Virus genome (UHGV): UHGV-0211073
Reading direction: 5' to 3' (one strand)
DNA: 17,979 nt
Source: a virus
A program made the position numbers and the translations under genes. Shown piece by piece: positions 8,808-9,247 of this stretch. Within the stretch, counting starts at the first letter, position 1, and each line of letters starts with the position of its first letter. Under the pieces are notes generated by a model. The model was not told the origin of the DNA. It saw nothing but the letters and a program-made list of their open reading frames with translations, and did no database searches.

Positions 8808-8821
8808 GGCCACGGATGGCC
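8808..8821. other. Short hairpin (GGCCA-CGGA-TGGCC) between convergent genes
   Basis: 5-bp stem between the 705-aa stop (8802) and the stop of the minus-strand gene (8822). No clear T-tract, so weak as a terminator. Confidence 0.3.
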
Positions 8822-9247
8822 TCAATCTTTATTCTTTGAAATAGAGTCATTGATCTTTTCGAAACACCAATGAAATCCACAAAAGAGAGCTACACCAATA
8901 TAACAATACAAAACTATCAACCACCTTTCAGTGTCCGAAGGGTAAAAAACATCAATTACATAAGCAACACCAATTGGTATTAATGCTAGTAATAACATCG
9001 ACACAGGACGTACAAACTTCTGAACTATATCAATTTTATAGAACCACAAGGCGGTATGTTTAATGATATAAGTAAAGATGGCTGCGCCAATAATGGCAAA
9101 AAACACCATCGATAAAGTCGGGTATAACTTTGCGACAATTAAACCCAACAAAATAATTATAACTGCCTGCCCCCTCACACCAACCCTCCCTTTAGCTTTG
9201 TTTAGAATGGCAATCATCATATATCCAAGACATGGCATTTGGTACAT
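8822..9247 (-). CDS. Small integral membrane protein (up to 141 aa, about 4 predicted TM helices), low-GC
   Basis: Hydrophobic stretches 'VIIILLGLIVAKL', 'MVFFAIIGAAIFTYII', 'MLLLALIPIGVAYVIDVF', 'LIVLYCYIGVALFCGF'. Visibly AT-rich relative to neighbours. Convergent with the 705-aa gene. Start uncertain (M1, M4, M10 or M11). Confidence 0.55.
   Translation of the reverse strand: MYQMPCLGYMMIAILNKAKGRVGVRGQAVIIILLGLIVAKLYPTLSMVFFAIIGAAIFTYIIKHTALWFYKIDIVQKFVRPVSMLLLALIPIGVAYVIDVFYPSDTERWLIVLYCYIGVALFCGFHWCFEKINDSISKNKD

Follow-up and report, generated by a model that had tools for sequence, protein, structure and literature searches.

An orphan membrane-protein gene in the sieA position of an Escherichia coli integrative element: a candidate superinfection-exclusion cassette

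The 17,979-nt stretch of DNA analysed here (the window) carries, at 8822–9178 on the minus strand and with a GTG start at 9178, a gene for a predicted inner-membrane protein of 118 aa with four helices, which belongs to an orphan family and is referred to below as the target. The gene occupies the position of the superinfection-exclusion gene sieA of phage P22 and shares its start region. Our best explanation of the gene, in which we place about even confidence, is drawn by analogy with P22: the target would be a moron cassette in the sieA slot, encoding a superinfection-exclusion protein that resembles SieA in its action and is not homologous to it. Judged on the same analogy, the target probably represents an entry-blocking protein that is new and unrelated, not the immunity gene of a toxin.

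The target gene and its predicted product

The longest open reading frame of the target gene covers 8822–9247 on the minus strand and would give 141 aa from an ATG at 9247; PGAP calls the start at the ATG at 9217. Several features of the sequence indicate that the true start is most likely the GTG at 9178, giving a protein of 118 aa: a Shine-Dalgarno sequence, AAGGGAGGG, lies 6 nt upstream of this codon; both homologues of the target begin at the equivalent residue; the alternative cassettes described below diverge exactly at this codon; PGAP itself puts the start of one of them, the D72-type cassette, at the same GTG; and the surrounding sequence is that of the P22 sieA start. The N-termini of the two homologues read M-(Q/K)-G-Q-T-I-I-I, and each has a strong Shine-Dalgarno of its own. 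For one alternative slot protein the signal peptide makes sense only from the shared GTG, and the PGAP annotation agrees.

The homologues are P0008, a protein of 118 aa with 48% identity to the target, encoded in phage contig L008, and P0017, a protein of 147 aa with 35% identity, encoded in contig L057. Since frame, length and motifs are kept at these levels of identity, the target ORF is, on comparative evidence, a real coding sequence.

The hydropathy profile contains four hydrophobic segments, at about residues 27–44, 46–62, 82–100 and 109–128 in the numbering of the 141-aa version, and an AlphaFold2 model of low confidence (pLDDT 64), built from a three-sequence alignment, also consists of four helices. 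The reading frame, the profile and the model together bear out the preliminary description of this DNA, which had reported a minus-strand ORF of up to 141 aa with about four transmembrane (TM) helices. The AT-rich patch reported with it is equally evident: the target gene has a GC content of 35.0%, while the window averages 46.3% and the neighbouring gene, which encodes a protein of 705 aa, has 43.8%. Lysine and arginine residues, counted from the sequence under the positive-inside rule, number eight inside and two outside; in the predicted topology both termini are cytoplasmic and two short loops, YPTL and YPSDTERW, face the periplasm. All three family members have the same D, P and ERW residues around the second loop, and the invariant residues of the family cluster in TM1 and in an IPxGxAYxID...P...ERW stretch comprising TM3, loop 3 and TM4.

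Comparison with type A SieA rules out the target as a SieA homologue. BLASTP against P22 SieA gave an E value of 1.7; hhalign, comparing an alignment of the three family members with one of nine type A SieA sequences, gave a probability of 0.2% (E 0.31); no family member matches the SieA PHROG, phrog_7745, which P22 SieA matches at 9e-109; and the C-terminal cytoplasmic motif FxRYPxEAxxFNK, conserved in SieA (PMC10883804), is absent from the target, whose C-terminus is FHWCFEKINDSISKNKD. P22 SieA itself is without a match in the Pfam set used, and Pfam was therefore dropped as a SieA test.

Broader searches returned only the family itself. An exhaustive HMMER search of 1.84 billion representative proteins yielded only three real clusters, namely the target, P0008 and P0017, and this search and a word-indexed protein search yielded only near-identical E. 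coli copies plus the two diverged clusters, with no distant relatives. Among 50,697 phage records, tblastn with the target found no match; PADLOC-DB v2 gave 0 families at E <= 0.1; Foldseek searches of PDB and BFVD with the target model gave nothing at E < 1; and Pfam and PHROG scans gave no family above threshold, the only sub-threshold match being to Bax1-I, which is weighed below. By these sequence and structure searches, the target is an orphan family.

The slot after gene 16 and its cassettes

The gene that converges on the target (6685–8802, plus strand) codes for a protein of 705 aa that is homologous to the P22 gp16-type ejection (DNA transfer) protein and matches phrog_6704 at 7e-175 and phrog_770, annotated as ‘DNA transfer protein’, at 9e-51. 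It is preceded by a gene for a gp20-type ejection protein of 451 aa (5357–6700, plus strand; Pfam Inj_translocase, 2.5e-73). The 705-aa protein shares 41–44% identity, from end to end, with the proteins at the gene-16 position of the Lederbergvirus phages Kapi1 and E212, and is 62% identical to Sf101 gp16 over the C-terminal ~500 aa; among the loci compared, its closest relative is gp16 of phage contig L008 (61% identity).

These assignments bear directly on the idea, put forward in the preliminary description, that the two convergent genes form a pore-forming bacteriocin/immunity pair. That reading is unsupported because the 705-aa gene encodes a virion ejection protein and is preceded by a gp20 homologue, and a Pfam scan of the 705-aa protein found no colicin or pore-toxin domain. 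The locus does resemble pore-forming colicin/immunity pairs in having a small multi-helix gene on the opposite strand, just downstream of the gene for a large membrane-inserting protein, a geometry that P22 gene 16 and sieA have too; it differs from such pairs in that the large gene is not that of a colicin, that no lysis gene is seen, and that the proposed target of the small protein is external, on the infecting phage. Taken loosely, the intuition of immunity is right in spirit, with a membrane protein set against a membrane-inserting protein; by analogy with SieA, what such a protein acts on would be the conduit of an incoming phage, not a co-expressed toxin.

SieA is a protein of the inner membrane, and its gene is found between genes 16 and 9 (Leavitt et al. 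2024, PMC10883804). The P22 genome has the end of gene 16 at 13313 and sieA on the complement of 13336–13830, the two genes being convergent with a 22-bp gap. The gene arrangement of the window matches this geometry, with a gap of 19 nt (8803–8821) between the stop codon of the 705-aa gene (8800–8802) and that of the target (8822–8824). The earlier account of a convergent end after the 705-aa gene with a short hairpin between the two genes holds; its gap of 20 bp is corrected to 19 nt. The hairpin, at 8808–8821, has a 5-bp stem (GGCCA-CGGA-TGGCC). Its stability does not exceed that of shuffled sequence (z −0.24 and −0.92), and a terminator scan did not call it, which leaves a function as terminator unsupported.

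The likeness to P22 extends to the translation-initiation region. The window has ACAAAGCTAAAGGGAGGGTTGGTGTG at 9176–9201 on the minus strand, nearly identical to the initiation sequence of P22 sieA, ACAAAACTAAGGAGGTTGGTGTG; the differences amount to three 1-nt insertions and a single A/G mismatch. In E212 and Kapi1, the slot genes have the P22 sieA version of this sequence. As the start-region sequence is common to the slot genes, unrelated coding sequences have been joined to one expression site at the start codon.

Both homologues keep the same position. In L008 the gene order is gp10, gp14, gp7, gp20, gp16, the convergent 118-aa gene, five Arc/Mnt-family genes and Ant; in L057, P0017 is flanked by a tailspike gene and by a convergent gp16 fragment with 25% identity to the C-terminus of the window gp16. 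Two of the three family clusters are found in true P22-like phages, and each of the three is convergent just after a gp16-type gene. By position, then, the family resides in the SieA slot: the target is convergent to gene 16, and the L008 and L057 homologues have gene 16 on one side and the immI/tailspike genes on the other; the carrier element itself is without gene 9.

Within E. coli, the target is present in 87 of 5,426 complete genomes, as one copy each and always at >= 99% identity, and the window gp16 allele, at >= 99% identity, is likewise present in 87 of them. The gene pair is thus co-conserved, as the preliminary description had proposed to check: the numbers of genomes are equal, and the target never occurs without a gp16-type neighbour. 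Wide occurrence of the target without the upstream gene, named there as an argument against the pairing, was looked for in the 5,426 genomes and is not seen. The 87 target copies are one recently spread allele, and the independent evidence for linkage therefore amounts to three pairs.

Upstream of the slot lies a conserved non-coding block of ~560 bp (9179–9742, minus strand) that is found in ~545 of the 5,426 complete E. coli genomes. The block is 96–99% identical across elements, while both its flanks are swapped, and matches to it mostly begin at 9175/9176 or at 9116. The best σ70-like site within it is at 9710–9683 on the minus strand (TTGCCA-16-GATAAT), and on sequence grounds the block probably holds a promoter and a leader; its role is possibly that of a long leader, or that of an anchor for recombination. 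Two other identities were rejected: substitutions in the block have no codon periodicity, which excludes a gene, and a fold z-score of 0.07 with no Rfam match speaks against a structured RNA. A match of 9550–9863 to a terminase gene (H105) is only a deletion junction touching a truncated gene.

Behind this one leader, at least three alternative cassettes for envelope proteins are found in E. coli: the target (118 aa, four helices; 87 of 5,426 genomes), a second four-helix protein, with helix 1 alone in common with the target (the P0015 type; 228 of 5,426), and a periplasmic protein of 132 aa with a signal peptide (the D72 type; 126 of 5,426). In the cassette found in 228 genomes (L060, 6714–7103), the first ~20 codons, which encode helix 1 and correspond to window 9116–9178, are shared at the DNA level, after which the sequences are unrelated; this pattern implies a recombination junction inside the coding sequence of that cassette.

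The same variety is seen in a wider sample. Of 49 loci whose gp16 genes are related, most of them prophage regions in IMG/VR, 45 have in the slot after gene 16 a convergent gene whose small product contains membrane helices or a signal peptide. The slot proteins of these loci fall into at least eight unrelated families, P22 SieA being the only characterised one; those of the others that were scanned against PHROGs are all of unknown function. In P22-like phages and prophages (L013–L056, L002 and L003), the slot under the sieA start sequence also holds a 75-aa membrane protein (phrog_7294), a ~99-aa periplasmic protein (phrog_19844), and others.

The unit exchanged between elements consists of the C-terminal half of gp20, gp16 and the slot gene. 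The mosaic boundary in gp20 is sharp and lies near residue 212: elements and phages alike keep the N-terminal Inj_translocase domain, and the first 212 residues stay 90–97% identical between elements, while the C-terminal half changes type together with gp16. The cassette type tracks the C-terminal type of gp16 strongly, but not strictly. Elements with gp16 proteins 92–98% identical carry different cassettes, and in Sf101 the slot gene is missing; an absolute rule that ties the cassette to the gp16 type is thereby ruled out. In ETEC H10407, a protein identical to the target is encoded intact although gp20 is a pseudogene with an internal stop; together with its low GC content, this makes the target gene look acquired and independent.

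The carrier element

E. coli PA45B has an island between yicC and dinD of which the window is a circular permutation; island and window are equally long, at 17,979 bp. Window 11600–12489 matches the right end of the island and 12469–13000 its left end, and their overlap, at 12469–12489, is a 21-bp att core at the 3′ end of yicC. Given the overlapping ends and the equal length, the window therefore represents an excised circle or a tandem junction.

The element encodes an integrase, a primase, AntA/AntB-like and ‘ash’-like genes, a PerC-like regulator, a C4-type antisense RNA and an isrK RNA; no capsid, portal, terminase or tail genes are annotated or matched in its 17,979 nt. Some relatives (among L059, L060, L061, L062 and L064) add homologues of gp14 and gp7 to gp20 and gp16. 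In ETEC H10407 (L064, NC_017633.1 347458–351318), the same gp20/gp16/slot module occurs with a different integrase, near paoD. The isrK RNA (17110–17187; Rfam, 67.8 bits) and the C4 antisense RNA (17250–17337; Rfam, 79.9 bits) both lie inside an ORF that PGAP calls ‘ash family protein’. We take the C4 RNA family to cover the P4 CI immunity RNA too. These RNAs suggest P4-type RNA immunity in the element, and the ‘ash family protein’ call may be partly spurious.

A second variable cargo region, at 9743–11500, contains an ImmA/IrrE metallopeptidase gene (10123–10611; PADLOC capP, 5e-25) and a gene for a 125-aa membrane protein (10615–10992; phrog_5346). It also holds a 147-aa minus-strand gene, and related elements have an ‘Abi family protein’ there. 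The region is likely a defence hotspot.

The element resembles the P4-like satellites with defence hotspots (PMC13586616; PMC8628076) in being an integrative element with a primase and a P4-type C4/CI-like RNA region, and in having variable cargo slots flanked by conserved DNA. It differs from them in three respects: no psu, delta or sid is annotated or matched in the element; it carries ejection-protein genes of a P22-like podophage; and its slot is inherited from a phage sieA locus. From its gene content, the element looks like a satellite that keeps only the ejection-protein genes of a podophage. The literature searched (satellites with ejection proteins, the protein accessions, the yicC/dinD island) contained no description of such an element.

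The combination raises a further idea, which we offer as rather unlikely in its full form: the element may be an undescribed satellite with a P4-like backbone in which the gp20 C-terminal half, gp16 and the slot gene act as lock and key. Satellite particles, built of helper parts, would carry their own ejection proteins past exclusion in recipient cells, and the slot protein would then shut out phages and satellites that use the same type of conduit. The carrier element thus hints at a satellite strategy not described in the literature searched, and it is a more novel lead than the target gene itself.

Function of the slot protein

We infer that the target resides in the inner membrane, that it is expressed in the integrated state, and that it blocks DNA entry. 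The integrated element would express the gene from its own leader, in the direction opposite to the ejection-protein genes. The 118-aa protein would insert in the inner membrane with four helices, cytoplasmic termini and two short conserved periplasmic loops, and would stop the gp20/gp16-type conduit used by incoming P22-like podophages from being assembled or opened. With the conduit blocked, the DNA of the incoming phage would stay out, an interference that is proposed for SieA as well. SieA alone is sufficient to block P22 DNA injection (PMC10883804).

We favour exclusion because the geometry is that of P22 gene 16 and sieA, because the initiation sequence is that of P22 sieA and of the E212 and Kapi1 slot genes, because P0008 and P0017 keep the position convergent after gp16-type genes, because the slot usually holds envelope proteins (45 of 49 loci), and because it is polymorphic in E. 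coli, with divergence from the GTG onward. The swapped unit argues in the same direction: it comprises gp16 and the C-terminal half of gp20, which fits the P22 mutants escaping SieA, as these map to the C-terminal regions of gp16 and gp20 (PMC10883804). So does the character of the gene, which is of envelope type, optional and low in GC, is swapped in the manner of a moron, and is kept beside the conduit genes. The stand-alone superinfection-exclusion or abortive-infection protein that the preliminary description had allowed for as an alternative to immunity accordingly gains support from position: P22 geometry, the sieA initiation sequence, and homologues in the sieA slot.

The likeness to SieA can be stated precisely. 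SieA and the target have in common the convergent slot ~20 bp beyond gene 16, the sequence of the ribosome-binding site and GTG start, a small product with several membrane helices and its own leader, and an adjoining gp20/gp16 module, which is the genetic target of SieA. They differ in length (118 aa for the target vs. 162–164 aa for SieA), in helices (four predicted for the target vs. three in type A SieA), and in carrier (a capsid-less integrative element for the target, not a P22-like prophage). Other small inner-membrane proteins encoded by morons, HK97 gp15 and T4 Imm, are thought to stop DNA entry at the inner membrane; their sequences are unrelated to the target, and the phage types and the proteins they act on differ.

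Three observations count against exclusion: the target has no sequence, profile, motif or structural match to SieA or to the PADLOC, Pfam and PHROG families; the link to gp16 type is imperfect, as different cassettes accompany gp16 proteins of 92–98% identity and Sf101 lacks a slot gene; and for a satellite, blocking its own helper type is not obviously useful.

The first of these observations leaves room for a membrane abortive-infection or other anti-phage effector that acts without blocking entry, such as a RexB-like depolarising channel, placed as defence cargo in a hotspot. We consider this unlikely. A small, four-helix membrane protein of low GC would suit such an effector, no homology ties the target to any entry blocker, and the slot adjoins the second variable region with its defence-like cargo (ImmA/IrrE and a membrane protein here, an ‘Abi family protein’ elsewhere). 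However, the target has neither a PADLOC match nor a partner gene on its own strand; it shares position and start region with sieA, which is proven to block entry; and the family members all stay beside gene 16 and are not scattered among defence islands.

Orphan status, with no homology that would inform on function, also suits a lysogenic-conversion or host-fitness role outside phage defence, as a transporter subunit, stress protein or holin-like protein. We regard this role as quite unlikely. The match to Pfam Bax1-I (PF01027), which would favour it, is weak: it scores 23.8 bits (E 4e-5) for the 141-aa version and 18.8 bits (E 0.0015) for the 118-aa protein, below the gathering score of 34.1 bits, and is made by one of the three family members, on which grounds an identification as Bax inhibitor-1/YccA was rejected. 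A GtrA-like flippase was rejected with no Pfam match and no gtr genes (gtrB/gtrC) in the element, and a holin with no PHROG or Pfam holin match and no endolysin annotated in the element; neither kind of gene neighbours the target. The logic of the slot, moreover, points to envelope proteins that face incoming phages.

The constant adjacency of the three family members to a gp16-type gene, and the equal numbers of E. coli genomes (87 with the target and 87 with the gp16 allele), would also be expected of an immunity or chaperone-like partner of the element's own gp16-type protein, guarding the producer's membrane during particle production; P22 gp16 is described as a membrane-bound part of the DNA delivery conduit (PMC10883804). 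Such a partnership is very unlikely. The target is convergent, is read from its own leader and lies outside the late-type operon; near-identical gp16 proteins are paired with unrelated cassettes; and the target remains intact in ETEC H10407 despite the gp20 pseudogene there. Sf101 is without a slot gene, and sieA is present in only 22 of 66 P22-like phages (PMC10883804); gp16 proteins therefore need no partner.

If the target does block DNA entry, as exclusion would have it, the sieA locus would be an expression slot for many unrelated, swapped envelope proteins, and not the seat of one family. The slot proteins would then provide several independent natural probes of how the gp7/gp20/gp16 conduit spans the envelope, a step that is poorly understood as yet. 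Slot polymorphism extends to ~10% of complete E. coli genomes, that of the reference strain ETEC H10407 among them, and the slot may shape which P22-like phages, therapeutic ones included, infect which E. coli strains.
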